Source: Bilabrum cf. latius (taxonomy: Eukaryota). Taken from it: a stretch of 64,000 bases of DNA. Numbering within the stretch: position 1 is the stretch's first letter; each line of letters opens with the position of its first letter. The DNA lies in assembly GCA_965178125.1 (NCBI GenBank), contig OZ237752.1, forward strand, positions 558,001-622,000. Direction: 5' to 3'. Below are positions 13,819 through 58,795 of the stretch, one piece after another. The translations under genes and the position numbers were made by a program. The notes under the pieces were generated by a model, which saw only the letters and a program-made list of their open reading frames with translations, ran no database searches and was not told the DNA's origin.

Positions 13819-13918
13819 CATGTGCTGAGAGACAGAAAAAAATTGAGTGACCAAGCAGGAGAATTCGGAGCGACTTCCTCGAATTGGGTGCTGGGCATGA
13901 CAGCACTATCGATTCATC

Positions 13919-16435: not shown

Positions 16436-16664
16436 GCAGGCAGGCGTGTGTGGGAGGCATGAGGACAATCCGTGGACACAGGGAGTTCGTGTGGATGTGC
16501 AGTCGCTCCAGGTCGATTTCAATGGATTTTCAAAACAAATATCGTGCAACTGACGGACAAGGGACTGCCATGCCGACTCGCCGAGAGTCGGTCCAATTCA
16601 CCCTTCGCCCTTCGACCGACCGAATGAATGAATATACGCAGAGGCCCAAGCTTCTCGAGAAAGC

Positions 16665-17615: not shown

Positions 17616-17753
17616 TTCAATTTTCAAGCACAAAGAATGTCTGCTGGGTCGGCTTCGTCTTTGGAGCCAAACCGGAACAGTCTGTCCTGCCCAGAAGTGC
17701 AACTCGATTGTCGTTCACGCTGCTTGACTCTGCCTTTGATCGTTCTTGCAAAT

Positions 17754-18064
17754 ATGGAAGTCATTGTCACTCATCTGATGACAGGTGCTGAAACAACTGG
17801 ACAGACGGTCTTGATTTCGTTCGCGAAACGAAATGTAGCTTCCTCGGCGGCGGGTACGATACCAATCTCGCTGTTTCCGACGAACCCCAAGCATTCAGAA
17901 TCGTCTCCCCGTGTCAAATCAAATGAATCGGTGCAAACAATAGGCTCGAAACGGTCGCGTGCCGATACCACGGCTGCAAGCGAAGATGTGTCGCAAGGAC
18001 CTAGTTCTTCACAGCTGGGTAGCATAGCAGAAACACAGCCACAACCAGACCATAGTATCGGAAG

Positions 18065-18104
<40 letters not shown>

Positions 18105-20255: not shown

Positions 20256-20267
20256 AATGCGCTTATA

Positions 20268-21719
20268 TCATCCCTTTACTTGACTTGACCTTTTAAATCT
20301 ACAAGCCTTTACTGAAACTTTCCTCGGTGTCCGTTCAGCTTCTCTTATTCCATTCTCGATATCTGTACCCATAGATTGCATACTTGCTCGTTTGCCCTAG
20401 ACCGGTATATCTTCTGAACTAGGGGCAACCACAGCAGAAGCTCTTCTATTCTCTTCCATTTTCCTAACTCGCTTCCTCGCCTTGCGTTTGCGTTGTCTTC
20501 GAAGCTCCTCCTTCTTCGGGTCGGGATAAAGGCGATCCCATGGCGCAGTAACGCAGACCCAGAAGCAAATGACACACATCAAGCAACCGAAAACAATAAG
20601 TGCAATCATCCACCATTTAAGCAACGGCTCGTTCTCGCTGAGTTGGCAGTAGCCTGCGTCACTAAGATGGCGCTGGATGATCTCAGGTGGATCTCCAACG
20701 CGAATCGCACAAAGAATCAGCCCAGCTATTTGAGCCTCAATAAGGATCCCGTCTTCCGTCCCTGCAGGGGCTCCTGCTGCATCTGAGCACAGCCGGCCAC
20801 CAACAAGCATCCGCTATGATGTCAGAATACCATCTGACAATGGCTCAAACCCCACCCCGATGCCGCCTGCATCTTCAGCTGGAACTGCAAGCTGCTGAAG
20901 GGTGGCGCACCGTTCGCCCTCCTGTGGCTGTCCAAAGCCCCATGGTACGTGCTGTCGGATACAGGGCCGGTTTTGGATCCAGGATGCGGGGTCCTGCCCC
21001 GCCAACAGATCAGCCGTGTTAGTGCCGTCTGGGACCGAGAGGGGTCGTAGATCCTGCTCCTGTCTAGCGCCCCCTGACCCGTCGTCCCACACCAGCACGG
21101 AGTCGTTGGCCCCTGCTTCCCGCACGTCCTCCATGCCGAGCCATGCCTGCCAGATTGAGGAGCCCTCCGTAGCGGCTGACAGGGCCAAATGCAGAGCGTG
21201 CCATTCGGGAGGGGAGTGCACCGAGGGAAGGGTAGCCCGAAGTGCAACTCCATCTACGCCGGGCGCGCCAGTTATTCTGGCACATACACTCTCTGCACCA
21301 TCTTTCCTGGTTGCAAAGCCTGCTTGCTGCAGGCACATGCGACCAAGGGCGCCTTCGTAGTACGTCCAGCTGCCCGAAAAAGGACTGGAAGCCTACTCGG
21401 CACAAAAATCATTCGAATTGAGCGCTATGCATTCCCGTCCGTTCTCAGATCGTGCGGTATTTGGCGGGCAGGTGCACCAAGACATCTGCGCCTGCTCCTG
21501 CCCGTCCAGCAAGATTGACTGTTGCAAACAGAGGGCCCCATCGGTGTCGTCGAAGTCACGGGAGCATATGCTTTCCTTATCTTCCGCGGGGCATACCCTA
21601 ACAATGCCTCGGGCTGCCTCGCTGCCGCCGGACGTCGGCGGAAACCCTGTCGCATCGGAACTACAGCACAGACACAGCAGCACCAGTGCCAACCAACATA
21701 GGTTCTGGTGCACAGCCAT
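20268..21719 (-). CDS. Type I membrane protein with Cys-rich/EGF-like and C-type lectin-like domains (483 aa)
   Basis: Signal peptide, CTCPPNTARSENGREC, and a CTLD-like pattern GSWTYY..MCL..AESVC..LPSVHS..AWLG..WDDGS..WGFGQPQEGERC. TM WWMIALIVFGCLMCVICFWVCV and a basic tail. Three TAG, ends TGA 20270-20268. Confidence 0.7.
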
Positions 21720-21908
21720 ATTGGCAGAGAATTAAAACTCCAGAAAGATTTAGTCAATTGCAATCAGAAGTTGGAGATTAATCTTGGCTTTCCAACGGAA
21801 AATCCAACAGTGGTTTTCGGAAGCATATGTGTGATGAGTGTTCCCATTCGGAATCATTAGTTTGGTTGCAGATCGACGATCCGCGCCTTCTTGCACTACA
21901 TAGAGCTC

Positions 21909-24900
21909 ATGAACAGCGACAAGCGTGACAATGATTCTCGATTACCCCTTTTACCGGATCTGCCTGCGCCTTATCCAGGTTCACGGGCACCGTTAAAGTA
22001 GAATGGTCGACCCAGACCGAGGGGCACCCAATCGCTTGAGGTGCAAAAGCTTGTAAAGCAAGCGGCTCTTGATACGTCTGCGAGGCCTCTGTACGATTCA
22101 AATGTGTGCAGTATTCTCGTGGAGCCCTGTGGTCTCGGAGCTTTCTCTGCAGGTATGATCTCGATTGGAGTGAGTAATGAGCAACCTTTTTCCAAGCCTT
22201 GGCGGCCAACTGGTTGATTATACCGTGATATCGGGAAGATGGGTTGACATGTTACTGTTTTCCCCGCAGGTTCTCATGATGGTGGGCATAATCCCCACGT
22301 CGACCTTAGAGCGCAACTCGCTGTGGACGGTGCACAGCTTGGGTATGATTGCCAGCATCCTGCTTGTGGTTGTTGGCGTGCTGTCGCCGTGGGTATGCCT
22401 CCAGTGCTGTCTTTGCTATCGCAAGCCTGCGGACTCTGTGTTCGAGCACAGCCGCTTCTACGGCTAGGCCGCCCTCCACCAGAACATGCAAGGGGCCACC
22501 ATCAGGCAGCACTACTCGGTGGCCGGCAAGGACAACGCCAGCCGCGGTACGGTCGTGCTGCTGCCGGGTGCAGGGGCGCCGCGCGGGACTATGCTCCCAC
22601 TCGCGCGGCGCCTGGCCCGCAACTTCCGCGTGATTGCACTGGACCTGCCCGGGCACGGCACCCTCTCTACAGTGCCCTACACCCTGCAGCACTGCAGCAC
22701 AGTGATCGCCAGGGTGCTCGCCAGAGAGGGTGTGTCCATGGGGCGAGGCCCGGGCTCGGTGCGGTCTCGGGTGGGCAGACCCAGGGACAGAAAAAGAGAC
22801 AGGGATAATGGTAGGACCAGGGGAGGTTCCGCTGCCTTGAGCCCCAGCAGAGATCGGAGCAGAGATCGGAGCAGAAGCAGGGGCTTCGGCCACGGTGCCG
22901 GCAGCACGCGGGGCTCCATGGCCGCATCTGAGAGGTCTGGGAAGAGAGACGGGTTTGTGAGCACCGGCGGCGGCAGACCGACCGCAGGGAGCGGGAGCGG
23001 GGCTGCTTCCCTCCGCAGCGGCGTGTCAGCGCTGTACTCTGACGGGAGGCAGAGAGGGGCCAGCAGCAGCCGACAGGGTGCAGGGACGAGGGGCGGTGCC
23101 TCTGCCTCGCACTCCCGACGGCTGGACCCAGGGCGCCGCACCGACGGCGACGAGGAGGAGGAGGACGAGGATCCGCCAGTGGTTCTCGTATCCCAGGGCG
23201 CGGCTCTTTTCGCTGCCGCTGTGTTCGCCCTGCGGCACCAGGACACTGTGGGCGGGGTTGTGTCCATGGGCCCCGTACCCGACTACACTGGCGGGCGGTG
23301 GTGCTCGTGCGGGCACTGGGAGCAGTATTTCCTACTGCGGTGGGTGGCATGGTGCGCGAACAGGGACATCCTGAGCGCGGTGGAGTCCTCGGATCTGCCC
23401 GCCGAGGAGAGGCAGCAGGCGGCTTCGAGGGACTTCCAGCTGCACACGGTCCCGGCCATGATCGACGAGCTGCAGGGGAGGCCGGTTTTGCAGGACCTGC
23501 GCGATTTCCGGGGCCCGCTGCTGTTCCTTGGGCCCAAGGACTGGGTCGCTCAAGTCCCCGATATGCTGCCCTACGGCGTGGTGCAGACCCGCAGGCTGAA
23601 AGGGGCCCGGCGGCAGAAGATCCCGCCACTCGAGGCTCGCAGACTGGAGGAGGCGGCGGTGGAGGTGAGCGCCTTTGCCGAGGACGTGTTTGCCCACGGT
23701 GCGCTGCTGGGTGCGCTGGCTGGCGGGAGGGGGGCACTACTTGGCCGGGACAGGAGACGGTCATCGGGGTACGGCGACACTGCCTCGCTGCGGAGCTACA
23801 GAAGGAGGCGACCAGCAGACGGCGATGGGGGTGGGGATGGTATGGCAGAGGGCAAGAACAGCAGTAGCCAGGCGGGGAGCGTTGCGGGCAATGGCGCGGG
23901 GTAGGGCCAGGGGCGGGGCTCGGGCACAGAGAGCGACATCGAGCTGGGGCGGCGGCGGGGGACTGGCACCAGCTAGTCTGCCAGCGCGGGTGCTGGTGCC
24001 GGGGCTCCTGTTGCTGCTGCTGCCGTGAGGGTGCCAGCGGACCGCAGGCGGCTTCCCCACGGAGCTGCCACCTCGAGCGATTTCGGCAGCGCCAGCGACC
24101 GCGGCTCCTTTGCAGCCGGTGCATCGCTCCCCATGGGCACCCCGCTCTTGGATGGGCTCCTGAGTCTGGCCTCCCCGCAGCACCAGAGCAGGGGTCCAGC
24201 AGGCGAAGGGGCCAGGGAGGGCAGGCCGGGCTCTCGTACGTATCGGGGGAACAGCGGGTCCGATCCACCGGTGGATTCAGCGCTGCAGGGGGGGTACAGG
24301 CGCGGGCGCGGCGAGGGCGCGAGCAGGGGCCGAGATAGGGGGATGGGCAGAGACGGGACCAGGCGGGGATCTGCGGGCGGACCTTCAAGCCAGTCGAGCC
24401 GTGGTGGGGCTAGGGCTGCAGCCACCGGCCGTGGGGATGCGGGTAGTGGTGGCAGGCTGGGTCGGGTCAGCCGACAGGACTCGGCCACTTTGGCGGTAGA
24501 CTCACTCTTCGGGTCAGCAGGTCTGTCCGAGCTCCAGCGAGAGGCAAGCGACGGTGATGGTGGGGGCGAAGGTGAGGGTGGGTCTGGTGGGGGTGGGGCT
24601 AGAGTAGGTGGACATCTGTCTGCGGGTGCTTCGATGGTGCCAGGGGGCAGCATGGCATCCTCTGCCGTTGAAGGCAGCAGCACCCACCCAAGGGCCCAAG
24701 CCCCATCGCAGGGCATTCCATCCCCCAGCGCTGCATCCAGTGGCAGGAGGGCTCGGGCGGGGATGGCAGCCAGGGCACACCAGGCCTCCATTAGAACCAA
24801 CTACAGGTACAGGCTGGTGAGTGGGGCCTCTGGGGAACTCGGGGTGAATGGTGGCGAGGATGACCGGAGTAGGACTCTGCAGAACGGCGGTGGGTCACCT

Positions 24901-25077
24901 GGGGGTGCGGGGGGGGGATAGCAAGGCGGTGCAACCGAGGAGGCCAGTGGAGGCACGGGGTCTCGCGTGGCGGTGCAGCCGCAGTGGTCCGTGCTTCGGG
25001 ACGGGAGGGGCCCTTCGTACGGGTCTTTTGACGGGGAGCAAGAGAGGGGCCGGGACTGGAGCTATGACCTGGAGTGA
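21909..25077 (+). CDS. Membrane-anchored alpha/beta-hydrolase-fold protein, probably catalytically degenerate; join(21909..22169,22270..25077)
   Basis: GTVVLLPGAG and FRVIALDLPGHG, N-terminal hydrophobic helices, and intron 22170-22269 (GTGAGT...CCCCGCAG). About 5 TAG, ends TGA. Confidence 0.75.
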
Positions 25078-25728: not shown

Positions 25729-26011
25729 GATTTGAGTTGGTGAAATGTTTGCGCAGTTGTCACCTGGAAAAATTAAAGAGCGCAACGACGCTTGCGCTGT
25801 CGTCATGGCTGTCGACGACAGCCTGTCGTGCTGATTTTCAAAATCTGAATTTAGTTTCTACACGCAACAACATTATTTGTGCTCGGTTCAGCGAATTTAA
25901 CAGCTTCAGCTGTGCGCTGGCTTCATCTAAACGTGTTGAGGACCCCGTTTGAACCACACGCGCATTCTAGTAAGTAATAGAATTTATTGATTCATGGTTT
26001 GCAGGCTTACC

Positions 26012-29000
26012 ATGAAGATGCACCCGTTGTGCAATAGCTTGGCCCGGCTTGCTTTGCTGTGGGTGTGGGTTTCAACAGCGATGGTTGCGGCGCAATCTGT
26101 ACCAGAACCTCCAGGTACAATATTCAACCAAGTTTTAGACATTAAAGACGCTTCTTCGTCGTCTTCTAGCCCCGACGAATTGCCTGGGGCAGCAGTTGTA
26201 CGGCTTGGAAATCTCGATTCCGTCGGATTCCACGACATTGCGTCTGGGATCCCCAATGGAATGGGATAGCTTGGCGTTAGGTCAGGATATGTGCACATAC
26301 ACAAGGTGTCGTCGTCCGATGTGCAGACTGTGGTGCTTTTCCCGCCGTCAGCGCTGTCCGAGGACGGCATGCAGTTCGGGGCCAGTTTAGCAAGTCTGGG
26401 TGATCCGGACATGGATGGAAGCCTTAACCTGGTCGTTGGCGCACCTGGATCTGCATACAACTTGCCATCTGGAAGTACCGGTGCCGGAATCGTTGTGTTC
26501 TGCGAAGTTGATGCCACCGGTTCAGTACTCTCCTCTGCTAGGATTAGCATCGGCGATGTTGCAACGGATCTCGCTGCAGCCGGCAAGGACAATTTCGGGG
26601 CTACAGTTGATACAATACCATGGTCGAGCAATGGGCCCGAGGAACGCACCATCGCGATCGGAGCGCCGGGGCAGAATGCTGGGACAGGAGCCATCTTCGT
26701 GGCACAGCTGGATGCATCCGGCACAGTACTCACTTCCACTACTTTAAGGGCTGCTTCTGCTTCTAACATCGATCTAGATGCCGCTACTGGCGTCGCATCA
26801 TTTTCTACCTCAAACTTTGGCTCAGCCGTGGCCGGCATGGGAGAGATCACTCGAGCCAGAGGCCGCACCTCCATCGCGGTCGGCATACCTGAGGCTCAGA
26901 ATGGAGTAGGCGCAGTGGCAATCATCCACCTGAGCAACAGCCTAGCGGCGGTATCAACCGATGTGATATACGATGGAGCCTCCGGCCTGGCTGCGGACAC
27001 GCTTCCAGATGCGGCTGCATTCGGCACTTCCCTTGCATCGGTGGGTGACGTGAGTGGGGACGGCTCGGAGGACCTCGCCGTGGGAGCTTCCGGTGCGTAT
27101 GAAGGATCCGGGGCCATCTGGATCGTGTTCCTTACAGGCGATTGGGATACTGCGGGCGATGATCGAGTCGTTGGCTGGCAGGAGCTGAGCCAGGTCAAGG
27201 GTGGAGGGGCAGGCCTCACGAACCTGCTGACGGCCGGTGCAGGGTTCGGCACCGCGCTGGCTGGCACAGGAGACTATGAGAACAACGGAAGGATGGGACT
27301 CCTGGTGGGTATGCCCGAGTACGAAGACAGCCATCTCACTAGGCTGTCGCTATGGACTGGCGCGCTCGATGCTCTTGGCTACGACAGCGTCGCATCCGAG
27401 TCGAGGGGTGACTAGTACGTGGCAGGGTAGCCGTATGCCCTTGGCCTCACGGGAGGCTACGGACATGCCATCGAGCTTATCGGTGACGTTGATGGAGACG
27501 GTAACACGGATGTTGCGGTGGGTGCCCCCGAGTACAAGGTTTTCGGCGTCGAGCGGGGCAGCGTGATCATCCTGCTCATGGACGGGCTGTCTGCGACCAG
27601 GGTCGCGGTGCACTCCCCCGCTAATTCTAACGGGGATCTTGCCTCAATGACAAATGCGTATCGCTTTGGATGTGGAATAGCCTCACTTGGTGATGTCAGT
27701 GCGCCTTCCGACGGCATTCCGGACATTGCAGTGAGTGCGTCACTGGAAGACGTGCAAGGCCTGCAAGACGCCGGGGCAGTGTACGTATTGGAGCTGGGCT
27801 CCGATGCAGACGTGCTTGAGTGGCACCCTATCCACGCCATTACAACCGGCTTTGCACAAGGATTCTTTGCAGCCAACGACCAGTTTGGGTACAGCCTGAC
27901 TTCCTGCGATGTGGACGGCGACGGCACCATGGAGCTCGTAGCCGGGGCTCCGAGAATCGCCGATGGCTCCAAGGGCAGCCTGATTGTAGTGTTCCTCTCT
28001 GGAGCAGATCAGGTCTAGTCGGCTTTGCGCATAGAAGATGGTAAGGCGGGCATGAGTGAAGATCTGGCTGCCGACGGTCGCTTCGGATGGGCAGTGGCCA
28101 CAGTCACGGAGTCTCCCGCCACCATCGCTGTGTCGGAACCATACAAGATCGTAAATGGAATACAGACAGGAAGCGTGCGACTGCTCGACTTGGATCAAGA
28201 TGGCAAAGTGACATCCTAGGTGGTGCTCGAACCGGGCACCTCCGGCATTCCGTCTTTCCTCCTTCACGAGATGGCTCTATTCGGGGACCAAGTTGCTGGC
28301 ATCGGCGACGTGTCCGGTGATGGGATCAGAGATCTGCTCGTGGGAGCCTCTGGACTGGATCAAGGTAGAGGCAAGTCCACTGGAGGGATCTTCCTGTTGG
28401 AGCTGACCTCGAGTAACACGGTAGGCTTCGTCAGGGTGCTGCATGCCATGAGCCCGAGCAACTTCCAGTCGTACAGCCCAACAGGTTCGGAGATCGGTAA
28501 AGGCATAGCAGGGCTTGGCGACTTGGATGGCGATGGCAACACTGACATGGCACTGGGTAGGATCAACAGCATCAATGGTGCTGGCAGCGCCGTGTTTCTG
28601 TCTGGTATCGAGTCTTACGCTGGAAGGCTGGCCAGCTCAACAGCAACAGTGAACGGCAAGTAGGGCATGTCTTCGTCCTTTTTGGGAGAGGGGAGTCAAC
28701 TCGGTAGCTGCGTGGCCACCTTAGGCGACCTAGATGGTGACGGTGACGAAGAATTGATGATAGGAGCGGCAGGCTACGCATCCTCCGCCAAGAGATACGG
28801 TGCGGTGGTAGTAATGCGCATGCCTGGGAACAGCCCTGGGACCCCCTAGTACACGTTGATCACGAATGCCAAAGGCGGGCTACAGACAACTCTGAGGGAG
28901 GACTCTCAGTTTGGCGCCGGTTGCGATGGAATAGGTGACCTGAACAACGACGGTGTTCCTGATGCAGTTGTGACTGCGACCAATATGTTGTCCCTGCGCG

Positions 29001-32000
29001 GGTCCATCTTCACGCTGTTCTTGAACAATGATGGTACCGTCAAAAATGAACTTGAGATACACGAAGGCAGTCACCCGGCCTTGAATGACTTGGGGGTATC
29101 CCAAGGCGAGCTTTTTGGGGCTTTCATTTCCTCCGGGCCATCGTGGAGCCACATTGGAGCAGTCGAGTACCTGGTCGGGGCTCCAGCGAAAAGCTAGCAG
29201 GACGGGGCGGTCATTTTGATTGATATTTCAAGCCAGGCCGGCCCCATTACCTCATTCACTTGGGAAGCATCGGATTTGAGCCTCACGTCGTTGATTGGCT
29301 CGGGGGCACGGCTGGGCTAGGGCGGGATGCTCGTTAAGGACTTGAACGGCAAGGGTGGGGACGATGCTGTGCTTGGGGCACCAAAGGCCACCCACTCTTC
29401 CGACGGCGAAATAGGAGCTATCATCGTTCTGTTTCGTAGCCAATCCGGCGGAGTTGATAGCTTGCAGCTCATTTGGCCTACATAGATCAATCCTCCATCC
29501 ACGACCACGTGGTCCAACTCCCTGTTTGGCTAGTACATGGCCCTACTATCTGATCTGGACCAGCTTGGCCAGGCTGAGATTGCCGTTGCTGCTCCTGGAC
29601 TTGAATCCATCTACATACTGTTCATGCAGCAGGATACTATGGGTATCAAGGTGGACAAGAGCACTTTGATCGAATCCAGCGACCAGGCCATAGATCTTGC
29701 GTCGGACAGCATCAGCTATTTCGGTGAGATGGCGTACATGAAGGACAGCAATAGTGATAGTCAACCCCAGCTTGCAGTTGGAGCGCCTAATGCGGATGAT
29801 GAGAGTGGCGTTACGACAGGCGCGCTGTTCGTACTCGACTTGGAGCCACGCGCTGCTCAGGCATCACCTCTCCCGAGCCCATCCCCTTCACCGTCGCCAG
29901 TCGCTGCTGGTGGCGTGGTCCGGTCAGCTGCGATCCTGGACGGTCAAAATGGGCTTCCCTCTGGAGTGAATGCGGGCTGGGCTAGCTTTGGAGTGGGTGT
30001 GGCGAGCCTTGGAGACCTCGATAATGACGGGATCTCTGATATAGCTGTTGGTGCGCCTGGTACAAAAATGGGTCTTATTAACAATTTGGGTACTGTGTTT
30101 GTACTGTATCTGCGACGGGATGGGACTGTGAAGAGTCACGTCGAGATCGGGGCGGGTCAGAACTCCGACGGGTTTGACTTCGGGCCTAGCGAACTGGGGG
30201 ACGGCTATTTTGGTTTGAATCTTGTGGCCATGAGGCAGCCAGCTGGAAATGAGGGGTAGTTGCTTCGGTTGATAGTCGGACAGCCATTCTTTGATAGTGT
30301 CTCGATCAATGCTGGCAGTATCTGGGTGCTGCGACTGTTGCCCAACGCGACGGTGGCGCATCACCAGCAGATCGGCGAGGGAAAGGGCGGCTTGCCATCC
30401 TCGCTGTTTGAGCCCGCGACTGCTTTTGGCGAGGGGCTAGCTGTATTGGGAGATGTGGATGGGGATACACTGAATGATCTTGCTGTTGGGATGCATCTCG
30501 ACGATATAGGTGACGGTGTGGCTGGACTTAACTCTGGCAGCGTGCATGTTTTGCTGATGGCTGCAAACGATACCGTAAAGACTCACACGCGAATCAGCCG
30601 CGCTGCCGGCGAGGGATTGTCGGGTCTTTCTACATCACATACGTTTTTGGGACAGGCTATTGCCGCCCTGTGGCCTGCTGAAACCAGTTCAGGCCCGGTA
30701 GATCTGGCCATCGCTCTGCCGAAGTCAGACATGATAGTACTGCTGCCGCTGAACAGCGCTGGGAAAGCTGGCGGCAACTGGACTGTCATAGCAGATGGAC
30801 GTGGAGGCGTGCCAGCAGGCACAATTGAGGTCGAATCCAGGTTTGGGTTCCGCATGGCTAGCATTGGGGACATCGATGGCGACGGGTAGGAGGACTTGGC
30901 TGTGGGCGCCAACTACGACAGCTCTGATGGATACCAGCGCGGGTCCTTGTTTCTACTCTTGTTGGACCGCCGGACTGCCACGCTCGAGCCAGTTGTCCGA
31001 ATCAGTCGACTCGGAAGCACCACTACCGGCTTAGGGACGGGAGTCGTGACGTCTAACATGAGGTTCGGGTCTGGTATCGCTAGCGTGGGTGACTTGGATG
31101 GAGACGGCACAACGGACCTGGTGGTCGGCGGTATGTCTGGGGGGGTGCAGTTCGCCGGTGCAGTGGTGGTCATGTTTATGGGGGGCGTGCCGCCGTCTGC
31201 CAGCCCAACCCCGAGCATCACACCATCCAGTTCTCCTAGCTAGACACCAAGCCCGAGCGCAACCCCAAGCCCCACTCCCTCTTCCGGTTGGGAGTACACC
31301 ATCCGGGGCCAGTATGGCCTGTACATGTCAAATGTGGTCGAGACTTCAGAAGACTCCGACGTCTTGTCCACTGTGCCAGGGGTGGCTTCAAGCACGATAA
31401 ACAACGACTTTGGAGACAGCATCACTGTGATCGGTGACATAGACTCGAATGGAGTGCCAGACTTGGCGGTCGGTGCCCCTACCCACGAAAACTCCGGCTA
31501 GATACACGTCCTGCTCATAGACACGGACGGGCTATGCAGCAAGGTTCATACAATAAGCAAGACTTCCGGCGATATGTAGGCAGACGATATAAAGAAACCT
31601 GGATTTGGCCGCTATCTTGCAGCGCCAGGCGACGTGGACCAAGATGGCATTCCTGATCTGTTCACCGGCACTGCGGGGACGTCCACCGGTAGTAACGGAC
31701 ACAAGGGGCACGGTTTTGTGATGCTTCTCGAAAGCGATGGCAGCGTCAAGGATTATCTTGTGGTAGATGCCGCTGCGCTTGGCATCTCTCGCTTCCTCGC
31801 ATATCTCGGCAATGGAGTTGCCACTCTGCGACAAGCGGGTCAAACCTCGCGCCGTCTGCAGCTCGCCAACACCGACCCCAGTCAAGGGGGGGGATGGAGT
31901 ACTCGTCTTGTTATTCGAGACTACCAGAATTCATTCACTGCTTTCACGGTGGACGAGCAGCTGGCTATCAGCGACGTCGTCGAGATTGGATACGACTCTG

Positions 32001-35000
32001 TTGGGCAGAGCACAGGCTCTGATAACCGTGATGGCTTTGGTGCGGAGATGGCAGGAGCAGATGATATCAATGGCGATGGTCACAACGATCTGTTTGTGCT
32101 ATCCCCATTTTTTGATTCCAACCGTGGGGCAATTTTCGTGCTGTTCTTCGGGTCGGACGGAACAGTAGGCGCCTTCAGTGAGATATCAACCGCTTCTGGG
32201 GCCTTGCAATATTTGTCTGGCTTGGAAGAAAACGACTTGGCGTATACTTCATTAGCGGCATCTGATGTTGATGGTGATGGCAGGCATGATATTGTACTGG
32301 GCGTGCGTCGACAGTCGGCAATCGGGCTGCTCTTCCTGGGCGCGGACGGCATGCCAGAACAGGGCAGGTTGATTGTAGCTCCAGACAGAGGATTCATCCA
32401 GCAGCAAACACTATTCGGCAGCGCAGTGGCTCCACTAGGCGACTTCAACGGGGACTCAATCCCAGACTTCGCGGTCACAGATGTCGATGAGAAGCAGCTA
32501 TGGATCGTGCTGAGCGAGCCATACGCTTTGCCGTCAGCTTCGCCTTCGCCCTCTTCGGCACCATACCCTGAACCTTCGCTTTTTCGGCCAAAGCTGGCCC
32601 TTGATCCAGTGACTGGGCGTATTGACTACTGCTTTCAAGAAATCACCCTTAAGATGGTGCCAGCCTCTACATTCGCCAGTAGGCTGCAACTTGGGACTGC
32701 AACTATGCGTCTGACAGCTAGTGTTCGATTGGACGGTTCACCGATAACGTTGCTAGAGAGGCGTAACCATCTCGAGATGGATCGTGCTTCAGCTACGTTC
32801 AGTAGCATGCTGTCAATGGGCTGGAATGGCACGAGAGACACAATGATGCAGTAGGTTTCGCTTGGCTCTGCGTGGCAGACTGACATCGTGCTCAAGCCTG
32901 CCCCAGCTTCACTTGTGGCTGATGGGACCAGTTAGGCCACATTGCGACAAGGCACCCAGGGCACGGTTGCGGCCGACTACTCTGATTTCCCATTGCCGAT
33001 GCCAAGGCCGGGTCAGATGGCCACGCTGACCATTGAAGCGCGGATGTACCTGCAACCGAGAGAGAACGACTCTTTGGTGGAGTCAGAGGCATCAATCCTG
33101 TCCATCAAGCTGGTGGGAGGACAGATACCGCGACTCGTGGAGAGTGGGGTGTCAAGAGGTGTTTTCGTTGATCAAGCTGTCAGAAATGTTGACTACGAGC
33201 TGGTTGGGGCACGAGGCTCTCGAGGCGTGGCGTGTAGCCAGCCTCTGGCAGAGGCGATTGAGTTCGATGGTGAAGACACCCGAGTGGTGCATCGGCCTGC
33301 CACTGCCCTGCAGTGGATCTTCTTGGGATCAAGTCCGGCTGCTGGCATATCCAGGCATGGTGCCACTTCGGGCCCCACTCCGGGGCATCCATGGTATCGG
33401 CAAACGCAGCATGCGGGAAGTGACTTCCTCATCGGGCTGAGAAAAGCTATGTCCACGTATTCTGCCTCCTTCAAACCATCGAATGTTGAAGATGTTCCTA
33501 AGTCACTCGAACAAGGCTCCTTTAGAGAGCAGGATACTGCCGACTATAGTGCATTTGACTTCAGTGCTATTGACGCAAGCCAGCTATCTATGGAAAACGT
33601 CCTGCATGACATCGACGGTGAGAAATGGTTCCGAGACCAGTCCGTACCCATGGATCCCAGCCAGGGCTGCAGCAGCAGCGACCCCCTCAACTCTCTAGCA
33701 TCACGTCTGTCGGCGAGCTTGCCGGCCGACACTCGGCAGGCTGGGATATTCGGCTGCGTGATCAGCCAGCCGGAGACTACTTCGGCTCTGACTAGCGCTG
33801 GCAACTGGAGCTTGCTGCTGCCTGCCAACTCACTCAGGGCAGGCGTGGCATACAACTTCCTCCTTCGTGCAGTTCCAGTTGTGCGACATGTGCGGCAAGT
33901 CAAAGTCGGCGGCACATACGAAGACCAGACAGAGCAAATCATGCCGGTGGCTCAAGCCGTGCAGGATGCATTGACAGCATGGGAGGCGAGGACCGTTGTA
34001 ATCAATGTGAATGTGCCAACCCTCAGCATGCCGATTCAGGGTGCTCTAGCCTCTGGGGGGCCAACGCCAGTGCCACATGACCAGCCCTTGCGGGTCGCAA
34101 TCAAGTACCCAGGCTCCGTGGATCCTGACTACACTCCGGCAGGTTTGGAATCGAGCATGCAAGCTGGTAAACGAGCAAATGATCTGGGCTTTGGGGAGGA
34201 CTTGAAGCTTTCACAAACGTTCCAGTGGACATGTCAAGTACGAACTGCATTAGGTGGGCCTCCGGAGCCGCCTGTAGAATCTGACTGCAGCCGACTCATG
34301 CCGGGAGCTGGTAGCCTTGGACCATACCGCAGCACTATAATTTCAGGGTAGGCAATCCAAGAGCTCACCGGATATGTCCTCACAGTGCAAGTGGCAGGGA
34401 CTAGTAGGGTCACCTCATCCGATGAGCAGGTGCACTCGGAACGGTCGGGAACTAGGGCTATCCAGTACCTCGTGAGGCCGCCTGACCTGCCTGTTGTCGA
34501 GGCCAACGTGACGCAGTCGTCACTCAATCGACAACGGCCGGATGGTTCTATCGCAGTGAGTCCGCAGCGCAGGCTGGTGCTTGAGCTCGTCTTGGACGGG
34601 GTGCGAGCGTCGCTCATGTACCAGAGTGAGCTAGCCACTACTATGGGTGGGCTCGGGTTAGAATGGGCCCAGGTGTCAGGACAAGCCATCACTGGCCTTC
34701 GTTCTATCAATGACGTGGAGGCAAACCCAGGCATTGGCTTCTCAACGCCCTCTGGTGATGTTCTGGTCTCCCCGGTTGGTAGCAGGCAGCTGGCCATTCG
34801 ACAAGGTGCTCTCGCTGCAGGGCAATCATACCAGTTCGCAGCAGTCGTGTTCTTGCGCGATACGCCTAGAGTGCAGCAAAAAGGCACCGTTCGTGTCTTC
34901 GGCAACATGCCACCCGTCAATGGATCGGTTGCAGCCCGGACTATATCGGGGCAAGGAAATATCAAGGCGGTGCTAAGCCTGACGAATATCTCCACCAGCG

Positions 35001-38000
35001 GATGGGAGGAATCAGCTCCTGACAACCCCTACCAGTACGCCTTCTACGTTGACATCAATGGTCAACTGCCAGTAGGGCCGCTCAGCCAAATTGCTGCGAA
35101 CCCTGACGACGTGATCGCCAACTACTCATGCTCACCGCTGCGTGGTTACGCGCCCAGCCCATTTGCATCTGTGTACCTTCCTGAGGGAAGTTCCCCAACT
35201 GAAGTCACCCCCATGTCGTTAGCAGTTCTTGTGCGGGATAGTGCTGGATCCATCGGTGGAGTGGCAAGTTTAATATAGGTACACCCGGCCCTTGACTCCG
35301 GTACGACGGATGAATAGGCCAGCCAACTGCTCAATGAGCAGCTGCAGCGCCTTGAGTCGTCAACGGCCAGCCCGGAGGAAATCTTGGGAGGACTGGCAGG
35401 CCTGGGACAGATAACAGGTCGTGTCAAAGCAAATAATACCACAAGAGTCTCGCTTGGAGACGAAATTCTAGGCCAAGTGGAGCGGGTTTCCACACTTGCT
35501 GCACCAAGCGATACAGTACTCGGATTCGTGGCTGCTTCAGCCAGCGGAGTGCTTGGTGGTAACGGCACAGCGACCGATGCTCAGATTGGTAGCACTCTAA
35601 GTACTGTTGGAAGCTTGCTGGCCAGGCGATCAATGCAGGATTTAAATGAGACGGAGCCGGTGAGTTCGCAGACAACTACTAACGTGCTGGAGGTGCTGGG
35701 CACGGCGGGCTTGTAGCAGCAGAGAATGGGCAACTCTTCCAAAATGGCCCCTGTCTCTTCATCAATCTCGGAAAGCGCAGGTCTACTCGGACGGGCCATG
35801 CTGCTTGGTGCAGTGCCGGGCGAACGGCCGATTCGGGCGCGAAGCAATGCCGGTGGCCTCGATCTGACGGCCGCTCGCATGCCAGATGTGTCGCAGAAAG
35901 CCGGGGCATGCCAATCTGGTGGGGCAGTATTCCTTGGTGCAGTGTCGGGTGAGCTTGCCTCTGAAAATGATACTGCCGCCGCCATGGCGTTGGAAGCAGC
36001 ACGGGCACAGATCGAAGGCGATGGTACTCACATCTAGACAATGAACAGATCAACTGACGAGCCAGTGTCGAGTGGTGGTCTGGTCCTCGCCACCACAGAC
36101 TGCGGGGCTGTAGCTGCGATGGGAGCGATTGACGCCAGCTTCATGAGCTTTGGCAACCTGGTTCCATACCCGAACAATAACGACAGCATTCCGATCTCTT
36201 CATCCATCGGCGGCGGTAACCGTTCAGTTGTTTCCGCTTCACTTGGAACCCCGGTCGCGGTGCGCGTCGCCTCTGCTGCTGGAGATGAGGCGGGAGGAAG
36301 CGGGGCTTTGATGCTGAATGTGGAGCTTCCAGTCGTGCTTAGTGCAGACAGCGCAATGGGTACCGGCTCCATCGCTTTGGAGGCAGACGGATAGCAAGTG
36401 GGGTCTGCCGATACCGACAGCAGCCTGCTGGTTGGCAGCTGCTTGACGTGGGATCCCATTGACCTGAAGTGGACTGAGGACGGTTGCCGTGCAGCTGGGA
36501 TCAGCGCTGCAGGTGGGCTTATATGCGAATGTGAAGGGTCCAATGACTTTGCCTCCCGGCTTGAGCTGCTTGCCAAGCGCAATCTCCAGATACTCACCCA
36601 GGGGCTTTCGGGGCTGACCTTGGACGACGTGCTTGAGAACCCGCTTCTCTTCGTTGTGGTTGGGGCCATGCTTCTGTTCAGCATTGTGTGCCTACCGTAT
36701 GTGCATTGCCTCGATCTCAAAGACGAGACCGTGTTCGCTGGTCGGCTTGCCCGGGACCCGGACGTGCAGCTGGCCATCGGTCTGGAGGCGATCGAGTTGG
36801 TCGGAGTACGACTTGGCAAAGTGATGGACCAGCTTGAAAACGAACCCAGGACGGGTGGAACAGTGGGTTGCACTTTGACTGCCGAGGAGGTTGACCGCGC
36901 CACTGATGCTGCCGCTGAATCGCTGCACGTGCTGCGGCAGGGAATTCTCGACTGCACCAGTTTCAGTAGGAAGGATTTCGATCGGAGCGCAGAAAGCACG
37001 ATGGGCTTCAAGAACGATGCTTTTGCTAGGCTAGGTCTCATGCTCAAGCAATAGAGACAGGAAGACTCGAGCTTCTCTGGTGCTGGATCCGCTAACAGTA
37101 CTGACTGGACAGCAACACGACTCGGTGACTTGCCAGGCCGAACTCGCTCAGAGCTTGGTGTGGAAGGCCGGTCGTGGCTAGCCACGTTCGGGTAGCACCT
37201 TGTCAGTGAACGCGGTAGTCCTGCAAGTGAAAATCCGCACATTGGCAAAATACGGAACAGAGCAGTCGAGTCGAAGCCACTCCGGCAGGGCCGGCAAGAT
37301 GCCGCAAGTCATATGTCGCGATGTCCGTGTTGTTCACTGGGTCCGTCTACAGCCTTCAAAGCCGTTGCTAGGGCATTCAACAAATCATTTTAGTCAATAT
37401 CGAGGGATCGACCGGCCAGTACGAAGCGGGATCGAGGCAAGATTGGCAAAACAGGCACAAAGAGATCAACAAGCGATGCCTCAAGGGCGCGTTAGATTGC
37501 TAGAGATGAGGCACTTGAACAACAGCTGGATACTGAACTCCGCGAATTGTCCAGCGATAGCAGCTGCGCAAGACTGTGGCACATGCGTCGAGAGATATGC
37601 CAGCTGTGGTGGGTCCGGACAGTGTATGAGCATTTGTGGTGTAGCGTCTGGTCGCGGTTCAAGTACGATTTGGCTCGATTTGTCAGGTTGGGGCAGCTGA
37701 CAGGCTCCATGGCAATAAGCATGCTAGTGACAGCTGTGTTCTTCTCTCTCACAGGCGTGAACAATGGGCCAACCTAGCCGCCCGACATGCCAAGTGGAGC
37801 TGCACCCCTAGATGGTACCGACACCGGCGGGGCTTTTCCACAGCCTGCCAATGCTACGTTCGTGGACACTACCGAGCCGATGACGCAGGTTCAATCCATC
37901 GGTATATCAGTGTTGGCATCGGTGCTTTAGATCCCATTCACGGTTTTGCTGACAATGCTCATGAGCTGTGCTAGCGAAGCGAGGTACAAGAGCAAGTTCT

Positions 38001-41000
38001 TCACCATGTGGAGAGAGCAGGAGATCAGAACGGTTGCAGAGGAGCATCTCGATAAGCACGTCTCCATCCAACTCCGCAGAATCAAGGAGCAGGTGGCATC
38101 CCGCGCGCAGTGGATCGAGACCTCAGACCCCTCCAAGGTGCAAGGTGCGCACCTGGACGACATCAGGCAGGTTGCTGACCTCGCAGGAGATGAACTCTCC
38201 ACGCAACTGGCGCTCGATGTGGCTAGCAATGCCCGCGGTACTGCCGGCTGGTAGAGAGAGAGAACAAGTCCGGTGCGAACAGGCCATGTGGCAATGTACG
38301 ACGGTCGTGTGGGACAAGAGCAGGTGGCTGCTAGCCCCAGCAATGAGTCGTGCGCGCCAGACTTGCAATCCTTGCAGCTAACGAGAAGCCAGCAGTACCT
38401 TGCGTTCACGCAGGCCGTTCGAGAACTTGGTGATACCATGTCAGCAGGTGCGCGGTGCGAGTTCACGACCTGCGGCACGCGTTGCAGTTGCTGCTGCTGC
38501 TGGCCCTGCTGCCCCCGGTGGGGCCCGGAGCAACTGATTCTCGACGAGGCGTCAGACAGGGCTCTCGACAAGACTAAGCCGGGCACAGCTCCAAGTGAGA
38601 AAGAGACTATCGCTAAGCGACTTCACAAGCTGCGGGTCACCGCACTTAGACGAGGGGCGATGCTGGGGTGGCCCAGGCTGCTTCCAATTCTCCGAAGAAC
38701 GCTGGGAAAGGTTCTCTTACCAGAGACTCACACACGTCAGGACACTGGAGGCGCGGGTGGCTCCAGTTAGGGCTCACAACGACGCAGAGCAGAAGCTGGA
38801 GGAGCCACCGGTGCGTCCACGGGTAGAACTCAAATCAAGTTGACAGATGGCGAGATACAGCAGATGCTCATGTGGGATCTGGGCAATATCAACTCATCTG
38901 ACCCCTACTTTAGGACAAGAGCCCTGAAAGCCGCGCTGCTTGTGGTTGATTCCATCCCGAAGGTGATACCGGCGGCCGAGCTGGGCTGGTTTGACCCTCC
39001 GAAGTGGCTGCATCGGTGCTGTTGCGGCTGTTTGCCAGCGCTGTTGGGACGTTCCAGGGTAGAGAAATCGCTCTTCCTGCTTCATGCATTCGCGCTGGAG
39101 GGCCGCCCAGTCGGGTGCTGCGTGTCTCGGCCTGCCGAAAGCGATCAAGCCATCCAAGGCGTGTCGCCCGAAATTGCTGCCGAGGTGCTCAAGCATGAAT
39201 CCGTGCTGGAGCAATCCATTGATCAGGAGATTGATAGGCTCATACAGAAGATCAAAGCTATTCCCAAGGTAAGCAGCGGCCTTGCTACGGACGAGGCATC
39301 GGGAATCTAGTAGCGTAGTCACAACGATAAATCGGTATGTTGCCATTGCGCCAATATGTGTTGCTTAGGCAGCAGTGCCACGAAGCCAAACGCAAAGCCG
39401 CGATCAGGTCGAGGGACAGAGAGACGGCCACAGCCCGTGCGCGAGTCCTGTCACATCATGGAACACACGCACTGCGGGGCCCTCGACCCATTGCTCTGCA
39501 GGTGCCGCGTGGTAAGGAGCCACGTGGTGGGCAACACGGACCTCATGGCAGTGAGCGCCGCAATAGAAATGGATCGATGGGCTGGCAGTCGCGGCTCTAG
39601 TGCAGGAGCTGCAGCAGTGGGCGATGCTGCGGTGCCAGTCTCCGTGGGGTCCAAGCCTAGATCATTCGATAGCAGCGAAGAAGTATCAAGCGCCGGGACC
39701 CACTCTACGCAAGCTCTGCCGGCATCTGCTCCGCCAACAGACATGTCCGATCACACCAGTACTGACGGTGACTCTGCCACAGCCATATCGCTGATTCCAT
39801 CAGAGATGGGTGGGGAGAAGTCCAGCAGCGAGTAGGCTAGCAGCAGCATCAGCAGAAGCCTCGAGCTTGACTTCTACAAGGCAGTGCAGGCCAGTCAGAT
39901 CGGCACAGCGATGAAGGCAGCACATGGCTCCAAGGAGATCAACAGCGATGATTTCTTTCGCATGGCACTACAAGCTGTAGATGGTGTGAACACATCGCGA
40001 TTTTCTGCTCAGCACGGAGTCGAGCCCTCACATAAGACGCACGTGAACGACCTCGGTGTGGCATACTGGCTGGCAGAGCACCGCGTGCTGGAAGCCCCCG
40101 AGCTGGAAGCAAAGGTCAGGCTCACCATCGCAGAGATGCAAGGCAAGGACCGGTGGTCGTGCCTGTATGGAGTCGCGTCCTTGGCATTTCTCACCGTCCT
40201 CATCTCGTTTGTGCTGTACTTTGTCTTGTCTTTCGGACTCTTCTACACGCCCGATGTCACCAACACGTTCATGGTGGTGTTCTGGCAGGCACAGTTTACG
40301 ACGATTTTCCTGACACAGCCTGTCATGGTGATGATCGTACTACTGTGGACCGTCGGGTTCAGCCCCGAGGCCAGAGAAACGTGCAGCTGGGTCCCGGGAC
40401 TGCTGGCTGCGGGGGCTGGCGTATCCGTAGCTGGCGTTGGCACACTGACAGGCCGCCTCCAGAACATGGTCTTGCTATAGGCTACCGGTGCCACTGCGGG
40501 GCTGGACAGTGCCAGCAGCTTGATGCTCTTCGGGCAGTCCGCGGTCCTCTCCGAGATGCTCGTGGCGAGGTCCAACAGAAGGGGCCAAGGCAGCTCGGCA
40601 GGCCTGTCTTTCGGCTCGGGTTCCCCTCAGGACTCGATCGCAAAGGTGTACGCACGCGTGCGGCACTCGTACGCATCCCGCATAGCTCGTGGTGCCATCC
40701 GGCGCATGCTCGAGGCTAGCGGGTACAGCTGCGAATGGACGAGACGACAGCGTGAAGCCGAGGCATGGCGGACGCGCCTGGCTGTCCTTGCCCGCCTGCA
40801 GGCCGAGCCTTGGCAGCTGGAGAGGCTCGAGCGCAAGGTCAAGCTGCAGGCCAAGGTGATCCTTGGCGATGGAGTGCAGCCCCCAGCGGAACTGTAGCCA
40901 GAGCAGCTTGAGCTTGAAGGCCCAGGGGTTTCGTCTGTTTCGGCACCCAGATCGAAGCGGGATAGCCTCGCCAAGTCCGTGGAGTTGGGCGGCAGTTTCG

Positions 41001-41248
41001 AGAGCTCAGGAGCTGATGTCGCGGCCGGGGAGGACAAGGGGGGTCACTTGCAAGCTGAGTGCGTCAGCACGGCTGCTGCCGCCGATGTTGACGACGCGAA
41101 GGCCTCCTTGGCCACTCCCGACCAGCTGGACACGCTCTAGATGCTACTGCGAAAGAACGCCGTGGCGTTGCACGTTGCGCTACTGGTCACTAGGGGTCTT
41201 GTGCGTCCTGGCGCACGGCTTCCTATGGCCAAGCTCCACTGGAAATGA
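26012..41248 (+). CDS. Giant intronless cell-surface receptor (~5,078 aa): signal peptide, many FG-GAP repeats, REJ-like region, GPS motif, polycystin-1-like TM region
   Basis: About 24 listed ORFs fall in one frame joined by ~38 TAG, with no TAA or TGA until 41246-41248. Has >20 DxDxDG-type FG-GAP loops, S/P/T linkers, NMPPVNGSV, CLTWDPIDLKWTEDGC...CECEGSNDFAS, and HLWCSVWSRFKYDLARFVRL followed by TM helices. Confidence 0.88.
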
Positions 41249-41364
41249 TTCATGGATCGGAGTAAATCAGATTGAATGTTGTAGGTTTTGCTGACTTTAT
41301 CACTGTAGTAGGGCTACGTAATTGATTTAACTGATAATCTTTCGTCGATCATGTTTCGGAATTC

Positions 41365-43504
41365 TCACTGCCCTAACCCTCGCACGACGGCATGGGACGC
41401 ACCTGACCCTTCCAGCACCTCGAGCCGCTGCAGCCGCACGAGAAGCTCACGAAGCCTCCCCGCTTTAGCTGAATCACCTGCACTGATGGCATTCGCCCCT
41501 CTCGTCCCGCTGCCAGTCGACCTAACAACGCGGCCCCTGGCATGCGCACCCGCCCCATGCACGCCGCCCCAGGCAGCGTCCTTGCTCACTCCCTCGACTG
41601 CCTAAGCCAGCAACACAGAAGCACAGCGACCGCTTTCATCCCGAGCGCCCACGCACAAGTCCGCCACAAACTCCTCCTCCTCTTCATCCCCCTCGCCTCC
41701 CTCCCCTGCCTCGATCAGCGCCTCGATGGCCTCCTCGTGGCCACCACTGCACGCCCACATGAGCGCTGTCCAGCCTGTCGTGGGAAATGACGCGCTGGAT
41801 GCAGATGAAGCAGCACTTCTGGCATCGGCGCCGCTGTCCTACCCTTTTGCAAGTTCAGACTATACACCAGCTCCCAGTGCTTTTTCTTCGCTGCCCTTCT
41901 TCGGTGCAGCGGGTCCACCCGAGGCGGCAGCCACGTCCCACCCAGCAGGGTACTGCCTGGCAGAGGGATCTGCTCCGTACAGGAGGAGGTCTCGGACCAC
42001 GTCGCCGTGCCCGCGGGCAGCCGCGTACATGAGCGGGGTAAACCCCGACGAACGTTCGGCGAGGTACATGTCGGCCCTCAGCTTTGTGACGAGCAGCCTA
42101 ACAATGGCCCTCTGTCCCTCGATGCAGGCGGTCATGATGGGCGTTGTGCCCCGGATGTTGGGCGTGTCCACAGGGAGCATGCAGCCGGGGGTGGTGCACA
42201 GCAGTTGAATGCAGCCCGCCCTGCCAGCCTGGCACGCAAACGTGAGGGCAGACCTGAGGCCGTCGGGCTGCGAGGGACGGAGAGAGAGGGTGCATGGGAT
42301 ATGAGCGGCAGCATAGGGGGTGTGCCGGGACGGAGGAGAGCGCACATCGAGTAACGAATAGAGAGAACTGGACTGCTGCAAATGCCAAGCATAGTGCCAC
42401 CTAACGCCAGCTAGAGCTTGACAATAAAGCAATTGCGTACCCTCTCGCGAACGGCAACAGACCAGCGGCAGCAACAGAACCAAAGGGACTCAGAGTCAGA
42501 AATCTCACCGTGAGCGCGGCTGGGTCCGCGCCTGCCTCCAGAAGCACGGATACGACTGAATCCGATCCAAAAGTGCACGCTACCATTAGAGGGGTGCGGC
42601 CGTCGGGCAGCCGAGCGTGCGGGTCCTCCCCTGCCGCGATGAGCTCGGCTGCTGCCCGGCCTGCATCGTGCCTGGCTGCCTCGAAGATAACGGGGCCTGC
42701 GCGGATGCCTGATTTGACCTTGCGCTAGCGCTTGCTGCGGCCTTGATTCTAGGTTGGATCCTCAAAGGTGGGCGTTGTGCCGGGTATGCTGCCGGAAGCT
42801 CCTCCTGGTGCAGCTCCTTTCCCACTGCGATCAGGTGCAGGCCCTGCCCGCGGCAGCTCACCCGCCAACGCGCCGGCTCGGATGAGCTCGCCAACAACAG
42901 CAGGGAAATCATTCCGGATCGCTAGTCGCAGTGCGGACAACCCGTCGTTCCTTTTTGTGAGTACATCTGCGCCCTTGGCGACCAATACCCGAAGGCAATC
43001 CAAGTGCCCACTTTCCGCAGCAAACATTGCTGGAGTGTTGCCGTCGCTTGTCTGGCAGTTTGGTGAGCATCCCGCATCAATTAGCAACAGAGACGAGCCG
43101 GCATGGCCAGAGCCTGCCGCAAGATGCAAGGCGGTCTCTCGTGTTTGAGCAAGTTGCATCCGTGCGCTGGCACCACTCTCCAGCAACAAACGCACCACAG
43201 CATCGTGGCCACCTTGGGCTGCCTAGTGCAAAGCAGAGGTTTGAGAATGTAGGGTTTTCTCGTTTGCAAAAACCTCATCCGTGTGGCTCTACAACCTAGC
43301 TAGAACTTGCTTTACCTTCTCCACGTTGCCAATGGACGCCCATTTACACAACTCAACAAGGCGTTTAGACTATTCTGTAGCAGATGACTATTGCGCTGAC
43401 CTTTCGTGTGAACTGGTGCCCCACACAACCCGATATGCTACAAAAAGCGCTCCGGTTGCACCAAGAGCGGCAGCCAGCGGCCACACGAACTACGATCTAC
43501 TCAT
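41365..43504 (-). CDS. Ankyrin-repeat protein with N-terminal signal anchor; join(42509..43504,41365..42267), 632 aa
   Basis: Repeats SALH[TAG]AAQGGHDAVVRLLL, TALHLAAGSGH, TPAMFAAESGHLDCL, TPLMYAAARGHGDVV and TALMWACSGGH. Intron 42268-42508 (GTGAGA...TCGCAG). About 10 TAG, ends TGA. Confidence 0.9.
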
Positions 43505-58664: not shown

Positions 58665-58795
58665 TGGTCTGACAGGTGTGGCTGCGATTGCATCGTTCTG
58701 GCAACACAAAAGCCACAAAGAAGGCGCAATCGAGAACAAGCAATTGCTACATTTTCGTTAAATGATAAATATTGGGTCGGAATCCCAGCAAATCG

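Follow-up and report, generated by a model that had tools for sequence, protein, structure and literature searches.

A 15-kb gene read with TAG as glutamine: a predicted adhesion receptor that joins FG-GAP propellers to a polycystin-1-like REJ, GAIN and five-helix module

What is encoded by a 15-kb stretch that breaks into short open reading frames under the standard genetic code? The stretch, positions 26012-41248 of the plus strand, lies in the window analysed here, 64,000 nucleotides (nt) of a genome assembled into 48.6 Mb and 111 contigs (C18:558001-622000; positions are those of the window unless a contig is named). When TAG is read as glutamine it forms a single frame of 5,078 codons, with its ATG at 26012 and a TGA ending at 41248, exactly where the original prediction had placed a hidden single-exon gene that is invisible under the standard code. 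Within this frame TAG occurs 38 times, TAA is absent and the only TGA is the terminal one, the other five frames over the same stretch each hold 57-171 TAA and TGA codons, and the longest piece left by the standard code is 471 amino acids (aa). A second in-frame ATG lies upstream at 25994. We estimate at about 0.6 the probability that the product is a plasma-membrane adhesion or touch receptor, in which the receptor half of polycystin-1, a protein of human kidney disease, is combined with five Ca2+-binding six-bladed propellers as the ligand-binding head, and which works like a canonical polycystin-1 but is not one. Its features are as follows (TM, transmembrane helix).

26012..41248, plus strand: whole coding frame
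26012..26092, plus strand: probable signal peptide, aa 1-27, judged by eye from the sequence
26138..29866, plus strand: propeller units 1-3 (aa 43-464, 467-875 and 877-1285), PF01839, family unit profile 286-351 bits
29867..29911, plus strand: Ser/Pro linker 1, read at 29876
29912..31201, plus strand: propeller unit 4 (aa 1301-1730), the modelled unit, a cassette common to three paralogs on contig C19
31202..31300, plus strand: Ser/Pro/Thr linker 2, read at 31244
31358..32521, plus strand: propeller unit 5 (aa 1783-2170), unit profile 258 bits
32522..33778, plus strand: linker 3, read at 32540, and a 400-aa region with a borderline DUF1651 match alone
33779..35296, plus strand: REJ module, Pfam PF02010 32.3 bits, cut-off 25
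35297..36553, plus strand: GAIN domain, a helical part and then a beta part ending in the GPS, from paralog alignment and family profile
36437..36553, plus strand: GPS motif, with G-S-N at 36536-36544 where paralogs have H-L-T
36641..36700, plus strand: TM1, hydropathy 2.55
37688..37750, plus strand: TM2, hydropathy 1.74
37895..37966, plus strand: TM3, hydropathy 2.05
37967..40159, plus strand: large loop containing Cys clusters (25 Cys among 726 aa), cytosolic by inferred topology, no Pfam family
40160..40234, plus strand: TM4, hydropathy 2.56
40286..40360, plus strand: TM5, hydropathy 2.04
40379..40561, plus strand: element after TM5, W-x-P ... L-[ST]-G-R ... A-x-G-A-x-A-G, invariant family columns

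Judging from paralog alignments, a tRNA and database fragments, TAG is a glutamine codon genome-wide, with TAA and TGA as the stops. When TAG was masked in alignments among 14 family frames, its partners in 821 pairs were most often Gln (195) and another TAG (191), followed by Glu (70), Gly (65) and Ser (59), counts to be read with the caution that the pairs are not independent and that TAG is one step from CAG. Leucine and tyrosine were rejected as alternative meanings, neither being among the eight commonest partners, and glutamate was rejected at 70 pairs against 195 for Gln. Three TAG positions are visible in the alignment of the dynein heavy chain, of which two face Gln and one Val. The nuclear genome has a tRNA with anticodon CUA at C23:907607, and all 12 family frames counted terminate in TGA or TAA. 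Public databases contain 33 fragments at least 45% identical to the family genes, of which 11 stop immediately ahead of a TAG and 10 immediately ahead of a CAA or CAG Gln codon, against a background of about 4% TAG and Gln codons (2,395 of about 57,900); this suggests that the relatives share the code and that standard gene callers therefore cut them there. The family is thus concealed from databases, where its fragments are short and unnamed because the relatives' genes have been chopped at TAG. Sources cited by accession or DOI, here and below, are cited for the parts available to us. In those parts of PMC11687900, UAG=Gln is listed for ciliates and Iotanema, not for stramenopiles, and no stramenopile nuclear code in which TAG alone is reassigned to Gln appeared in the literature that we searched, a search outside which most subscription journals fell. 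The host is supported as a stramenopile by HSP90, whose species-named matches are all from that group (65-68% identity) and leave the lineage below it unfixed. A bicosoecid would be a weaker guess; the sole species-named match of the adjacent signal peptide peptidase is from Cafeteria roenbergensis, at 42%.

Six sequencing runs cover the gene stretch, none of them recorded as RNA, and the contigs of four were mapped. Two contigs of run X5 (25916-30413 and 30385-41325) span the receptor gene with no gaps and no mismatched letters, and the second, of 10,941 nt, runs from propeller 4 through the REJ module, the GPS and all helices to beyond the stop. Another X5 contig omits 42268-42508, the 241-nt GT-AG intron of an adjacent gene, and X5 must therefore contain spliced RNA. 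These contigs support one intronless transcript, without proving it, and the gene is probably real and intronless. Contig ends, and uncovered stretches flanking the gene in X5 and X6, were given no weight as signs of where transcripts end. The competing view, that two genes or a pseudogene were fused by misassembly or by forced TAG read-through, we consider very improbable and already largely refuted. It draws on the sole break between the X5 contigs, which falls at a 31-mer inside unit 4 common to three paralogs, where repeats may mislead an assembler, and on two paralogs that are split in the assembly. However, a contig of run X6 (29595-31037) bridges that break, both the edges of unit 4 and the junction of propellers and stalk lie within single contigs in DNA and spliced runs, no TAA or TGA interrupts the 5,078 codons, and the same domain order is found in eight paralogs and in an unbroken database protein, P0019. 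Separate transcripts for the two halves, or a lack of any structural match to REJ/GAIN, were the refuting outcomes named with the original prediction; neither appeared, and a GAIN match was obtained on the homologue P0101 described below.

The extracellular head was expected to consist of FG-GAP repeats with calcium loops, and Pfam FG-GAP (PF01839) indeed matches it at 244.8 bits (E 2e-74) in 14 stretches, alongside 14 matches to the calcium-loop consensus DxD/NxDG. A family unit profile divides the head into five propeller units in series, mostly of about 410-430 aa. The linkers were found close to where they had been anticipated (near 29870, 31200 and 32530), while units 1-3 have no Ser/Pro linkers between them and show, by eye from the repeats, six blades each. 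Folding unit 4 together with 27 family units gave a model of 24 strands with a predicted template-modelling score (pTM) of 0.90 and a predicted local distance difference test (pLDDT) of 86.8. In this model the unit is six-bladed with 3+1 closure, so that the idea of several integrin-alpha-like propellers holds for their number and not for the seven blades of integrin. Foldseek places integrin alpha heads at the top for unit 4, yet with a template-modelling score of about 0.55 and a root-mean-square deviation (rmsd) of about 7. In a wide structure search integrin alpha-M reached Z 27.3 at rmsd 4.2, compared with Z 27.1 and 26.9 at the lower rmsd of 3.1-3.2 for phytase and NHL propellers, which we take to be six-bladed. 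Integrin alpha chains have FG-GAP blades with the same type of calcium loop, but in one seven-bladed propeller (10.1101/2020.04.29.069435) followed by leg domains, a single helix and a GFFKR tail. The receptor has five units in series, of which the modelled one is predicted to be six-bladed, and five helices; no leg domain was matched by Pfam and no GFFxR motif was present when looked for, which together rule out a seven-bladed propeller and integrin membership. The region downstream of the head (aa 2191-2589, within 32522-33778) is probably the first immunoglobulin (Ig)-like part of the REJ stalk, to judge from a D-Y/F-C motif seen in paralogs.

A REJ-like region had been proposed next, and PF02010 passes its cut-off here and matches all ten aligned family members. 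Its signature motifs were located at 33815 (LLPANSLRAGVAYNF), 34217 (TFQWTC) and 34904 (NMPPVNGSV). On long pieces Pfam gave neither REJ nor GPS; REJ, missed in a piece of 1,400 aa, passed in one of 971 aa. The proposed GPS was found at 36437-36553, where its invariant Cys/Trp pattern aligns with the paralogs, and the family profile matches the GPS regions of adhesion G-protein-coupled receptor (GPCR) structures (16 sequences, E up to 1). Its catalytic residues are lost, however: the site reads C-E-C-E-G-S-N-D-F-A in place of the C-x-C-x-H-L-T-D-F-A of the paralogs. The 12 other GPS loci of the genome carry HLT (11) or HHT (1), and in the 102 of 150 database matches whose cleavage pattern was recognised, HLT occurs 81 times and GSN once. 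This single GSN protein, P0066, is a 77-aa fragment 79% identical to the window gene and orthologous to it, so the loss is unlikely to be recent decay. From these residues the receptor is probably uncleaved at its GPS. Each of the latrophilin substitutions H836S, L837A and T838G impairs autoproteolysis and leaves surface transport unblocked (PMC3321182), while PKD1L1 and PKDREJ, which like the window receptor are without the HL(T/S) tripeptide, are natural uncleaved examples (PMC9672506). The long loops of the window protein preclude a single model, and the compact homologue P0101 was folded for this reason, with 48 sequences including that of the window (pLDDT 83, pTM 0.74). Residues 1-248 of this model match GAIN domains with a best Z of 15.0 (rmsd 3.3, 174 aligned), the best structures being ADGRG1, G6, F1, CELSR1 and L3.

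Beyond the GPS, hydropathy marks five helices (aa 3544, 3893, 3962, 4717 and 4759), of which TM4 and TM5 are kept in eight of eight aligned family members. The motifs HLWCSVW (37631) and MLVTAVFF (37721), on which PKD1-like helices had been postulated, are in place. In the P0101 model the loop after TM1 is all-helical, and residues 257-668 superpose on residues 3063-3610 of polycystin-1 (8z6b_A) with Z 12.3 and rmsd 5.0 over 199 aligned positions, the next helical match reaching only Z 6.3. This model argues with moderate strength that the TM1-TM5 bundle is homologous to that of polycystin-1. The conserved element after TM5 has no Pfam or PDB match, and there are no hydrophobic peaks in the 293 aa that follow TM5. 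The anticipated lack of a PLAT or pore domain was borne out, in that Pfam gave no family, including PLAT, 7TM and the PKD channel (PF08016), in aa 3401-5078, a result to be set beside its failure to detect REJ on a long piece. Nor did that search show any signalling domain, such as a channel or kinase, in the 1,515 C-terminal residues.

Comparison with known systems places the protein near polycystin-1 and outside it. The PKD1-like proteins (PKD1, PKD1L1-3, PKDREJ and SpREJ1-10) likewise have a large ectodomain, a REJ module, a GAIN/GPS before TM1 and the five-helix bundle. They are described as having 11 helices, a PLAT domain and a channel, with shorter forms in sea urchin (PMC5318412, PMC1934368). 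In polycystin-1 the last six helices form the cation channel, PLAT follows TM1, and the ectodomain carries PKD, lectin or leucine-rich repeats (LRR), whereas the window receptor has FG-GAP propellers in their place, five helices with neither domain found, Cys-cluster loops 330 and 730 aa long and no visible intron. Canonical PKD1 membership is ruled out by PLAT, helix number and channel domain. SpREJ proteins with one, two or six helices exist, none with five being among those described in the available parts of PMC1934368. Adhesion GPCRs resemble the receptor in leading from adhesion modules through GAIN/GPS to a multi-pass membrane part, but that part has seven helices, in contrast to a polycystin-type bundle of five with REJ before GAIN; five helices and the lack of a 7tm Pfam match rule out this membership too. 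A stramenopile protein, Ectocarpus Esi0130_0068, also combines REJ, GPS and several membrane helices, but it is 1,427 aa long with six or seven predicted helices and no reported adhesion head (PMC4700764; compared by description only). It follows that the modules are not, as had been supposed, known only from separate animal proteins: besides the Ectocarpus protein, there are reports of GAIN domains from Tetrahymena and Dictyostelium (PMC3321182), and FG-GAP proteins of Cafeteria and other algae have been noted and set aside as non-integrins (10.1101/2020.04.29.069435). The REJ-GPS-TM chassis is thus already known from a brown alga. The literature searched held no report of FG-GAP combined with REJ/GPS, nothing on this architecture stood in the available parts of PMC13197933 and PMC12716839, and neither propeller heads on such a chassis nor cassette exchange was found.

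The architecture is not a one-off. At least 13 GPS genes are present in the genome, and the paralog frames fetched are 2,352-7,116 aa long. Eight of the 12 paralogs carry two to eight propeller units joined to REJ; no unit was seen in those on C1, C3 and C35, whose 5' ends were traced in part. Although the paralogs are no more than 21-38% alike, they keep the helices, loop motifs and post-TM5 element. When 1.84 billion representatives were searched with a profile, there were 1,869 matches at E 0.001, of which the best 150 were examined, and 61 of 157 database proteins collected match a TM2-TM3 or TM4-TM5 profile. Pfam was run on 16 proteins, chosen from 68 of at least 1,500 aa: none has PLAT or PKD_channel, FG-GAP and REJ occur together in two (P0019 and P0026), and cadherin, EGF, TSP1 or growth-factor-receptor domains are found in others. 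Both P0019 and P0026 are about 24% identical to the window receptor; P0019 (4,643 aa) also shares its GPS and TM2-TM3 module but, unlike it, keeps HLT. A word-indexed search with aa 2700-3620 against proteins of 2,792-8,887 aa gave none at E 0.001 among 1,174 candidates, a blank that means little because the profile search found P0019 in that size class.

Propeller cassettes appear to have been copied between these genes. Each of three C19 genes has one unit with 79-80% protein identity to unit 4 of the window receptor, while their stalks and that of the window receptor share 28%; the other four units of the receptor find best matches of 33-38% among the 38 units compared. The DNA match is 74% over 29874-31229, with both edges at Ser/Pro linkers. 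Units 1, 2 and 3 of gene C19b1 are 96, 94 and 95% identical to units 1, 6 and 8 of C19a2, at a synonymous divergence (dS) of 0.16-0.25, while the stalks of C19a and C19b share about 45% identity, with a dS of 1.5 for this pair. Module shuffling is suggested because cassettes are 79-96% identical where stalks share 28-45%. For unit 4 of the window the dS is 1.26, against 2.25 for the stalk, and the exchange event would therefore be old. FG-GAP expansion reaches far beyond the receptor family (820 candidates, of which 150 were scored): nine further regions include eight long frames with propeller units on other stalks, and one simpler stalk of this kind has a single C-terminal helix.

Such shuffling invites another account, in which the protein is a variable recognition receptor, acting in mating, self/non-self discrimination or virus encounter, and diversifying selection drives the exchange. 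Heads do differ in unit number (2-8) and order between near-identical stalks, sea-urchin REJ proteins act in gamete recognition (PMC1934368), and the Ectocarpus REJ-GPS protein is male-gamete-specific and positively selected (PMC4700764). Yet the shared cassettes have ratios of nonsynonymous to synonymous divergence of about 0.11-0.17, that is, they are under purifying selection, and the gene is covered in both runs (X5 and X6) of one study with no hint of stage restriction. We regard this account as quite unlikely.

Instead we favour the adhesion or touch receptor. Its Ca2+-stabilised propellers would bind surfaces, prey or other cells, and the binding or pull would travel along the REJ stalk to the GAIN domain and the five-helix bundle. 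From there the signal could be relayed by the large, Cys-rich loops in the cytosol, possibly to a separate TRPP/PKD2-like channel of the genome; at least 16 PKD_channel matches were counted there, five of them near full length and none at a GPS locus. Paralogs with HLT should cleave themselves, as adhesion GPCRs and polycystin-1 do, while the window copy, because GSN replaces HLT, would stay one chain and might serve as a non-shedding, load-bearing tether or an allosteric sensor. Specificity may change as entire propeller cassettes are copied from gene to gene at the Ser/Pro linkers. The loss of the cleavage triad, common to the orthologous fragment, would suit a purely mechanical adhesin or surface-coat protein, in which an uncleavable GAIN and five helices only anchor a string of propellers and no signal is sent; the C-terminal part devoid of recognisable signalling domains and the occurrence of the propeller cassette on simpler stalks fit this also. 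Nevertheless, an anchor needs one helix, whereas here conservation between divergent paralogs extends to all five helices, to the loop motifs and to the element after TM5, and PKD1L1 and PKDREJ have G-protein links reported for both despite their own want of the tripeptide (PMC9672506). A purely mechanical role is, on balance, unlikely.

Several observations weigh against the receptor reading. Its ligand, location and output are argued by analogy with polycystin-1 and adhesion GPCRs. The window GPS scores 13.8 bits, under the Pfam cut-off of 22.5, which the GPS exceeds at the 12 paralog loci, and the GAIN and membrane structure matches come by way of P0101, which is about 19% identical to the window protein in a wide alignment. 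Foldseek with the P0101 model lists GAIN domains and no polycystin row, and the Z of its bundle lies close to the value at which the tool advises caution with helical bundles. The wider family profile matches polycystin-1 weakly at TM2-TM3 (E 0.027), and paralog-only profiles of TM2-TM3 and TM4-TM5 gave no polycystin match in the PDB. A comparison of two of the family profiles was set aside as circular, since the window protein is in both. At unit 4, the appearance of transfer could also arise from an ancient duplication followed by strong constraint. The CUA tRNA matches tRNA-Tyr at 50 of 73 positions and tRNA-Gln at 47. Finally, X5 is tagged 'probably DNA' by the read tool and may include DNA, and X5 and X6 are from one study, their contigs falling short of proof of a single transcript.

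Little is understood of what the first five helices and GAIN of polycystin-1 do independently of the channel half. A family that naturally has this receptor half alone, in cleavable and non-cleavable forms, makes their role testable and bears on the origin of polycystin-1. We tentatively suggest, as a possibility we would not call probable, that REJ-GAIN-5TM proteins form a widespread free-standing 'half-polycystin' class, representing the state before fusion to a TRPP channel gave animal polycystin-1 and regulating TRPP in trans, and that here the class has become a combinatorial recognition repertoire by cassette copying, split into self-cleaving and conserved non-cleaving forms. Cassette exchange also suggests a route by which a single-celled organism could diversify its surface recognition. 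Of more specialist interest are the apparently mobile six-bladed FG-GAP cassettes, the coexistence of a conserved GAIN of non-cleaving type with paralogs of the cleaving type, and the way in which TAG=Gln conceals the gene.

Other members of the family show further variation. At C20:1024473-1044863 a stalk 76% identical to that of C19a1 carries a head of about 15 near-identical 137-aa repeats, which look cadherin- or Ig-like and have no convincing Pfam name. Gene C37b is interrupted, relative to a 96%-identical twin, by a 7.0-kb insert (C37:218280-225282) composed mostly of tandem repeats of ~110 bp and giving no Pfam match. The C16 paralog is split between TM2 and TM3 into two frames that overlap (C16:746972-747237), with no GT[AG]AG donor nearby; a frameshift, a sequencing error and an unusual intron are alternative explanations. 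A second subfamily, at C19:215637-238034 and C19:588001-602437, includes a 7,465-aa frame with ten propeller-unit profile matches, REJ, PKD1-like helices and two extra hydrophobic helices; its deviant GPS-like sequence, C-A-T-T-H-L-S-D-F, was missed by the GPS family search.

The CUA tRNA has an acceptor stem like that of this genome's tRNA-Tyr and a discriminator G as in its tRNA-Gln(TTG). Two nuclear tRNA-Ile genes have a GAT anticodon, which is uncommon in eukaryotes. On the small contig C111, clustered tRNAs include one with a TCA anticodon, as expected for a mitochondrial genome with TGA=Trp, a mitochondrial code reported in bicosoecids (PMC6723347). One mitochondrial locus searched against phages gave no match, which is irrelevant to the receptor.

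The neighbours of the receptor gene form no functional cluster with it. Those at 12376-25077 and 56343-63533 are ordinary genes that all need TAG read-through, encoding a YdcZ-type exporter, a PA-domain signal peptide peptidase, an RNase Z-like metallo-hydrolase, an alpha/beta hydrolase, CTNNBL1, and LRR and Myb proteins. On the minus strand, 48768-51206 encodes a protein of 812 aa that appears to have a signal peptide and also contains a Pro-rich linker and perhaps a propeller-like region; no Pfam family was above cut-off. The adjacent gene at 41382-43504, also on the minus strand, contains the intron at 42268-42508 and encodes an ankyrin-repeat protein of 632 aa when spliced.

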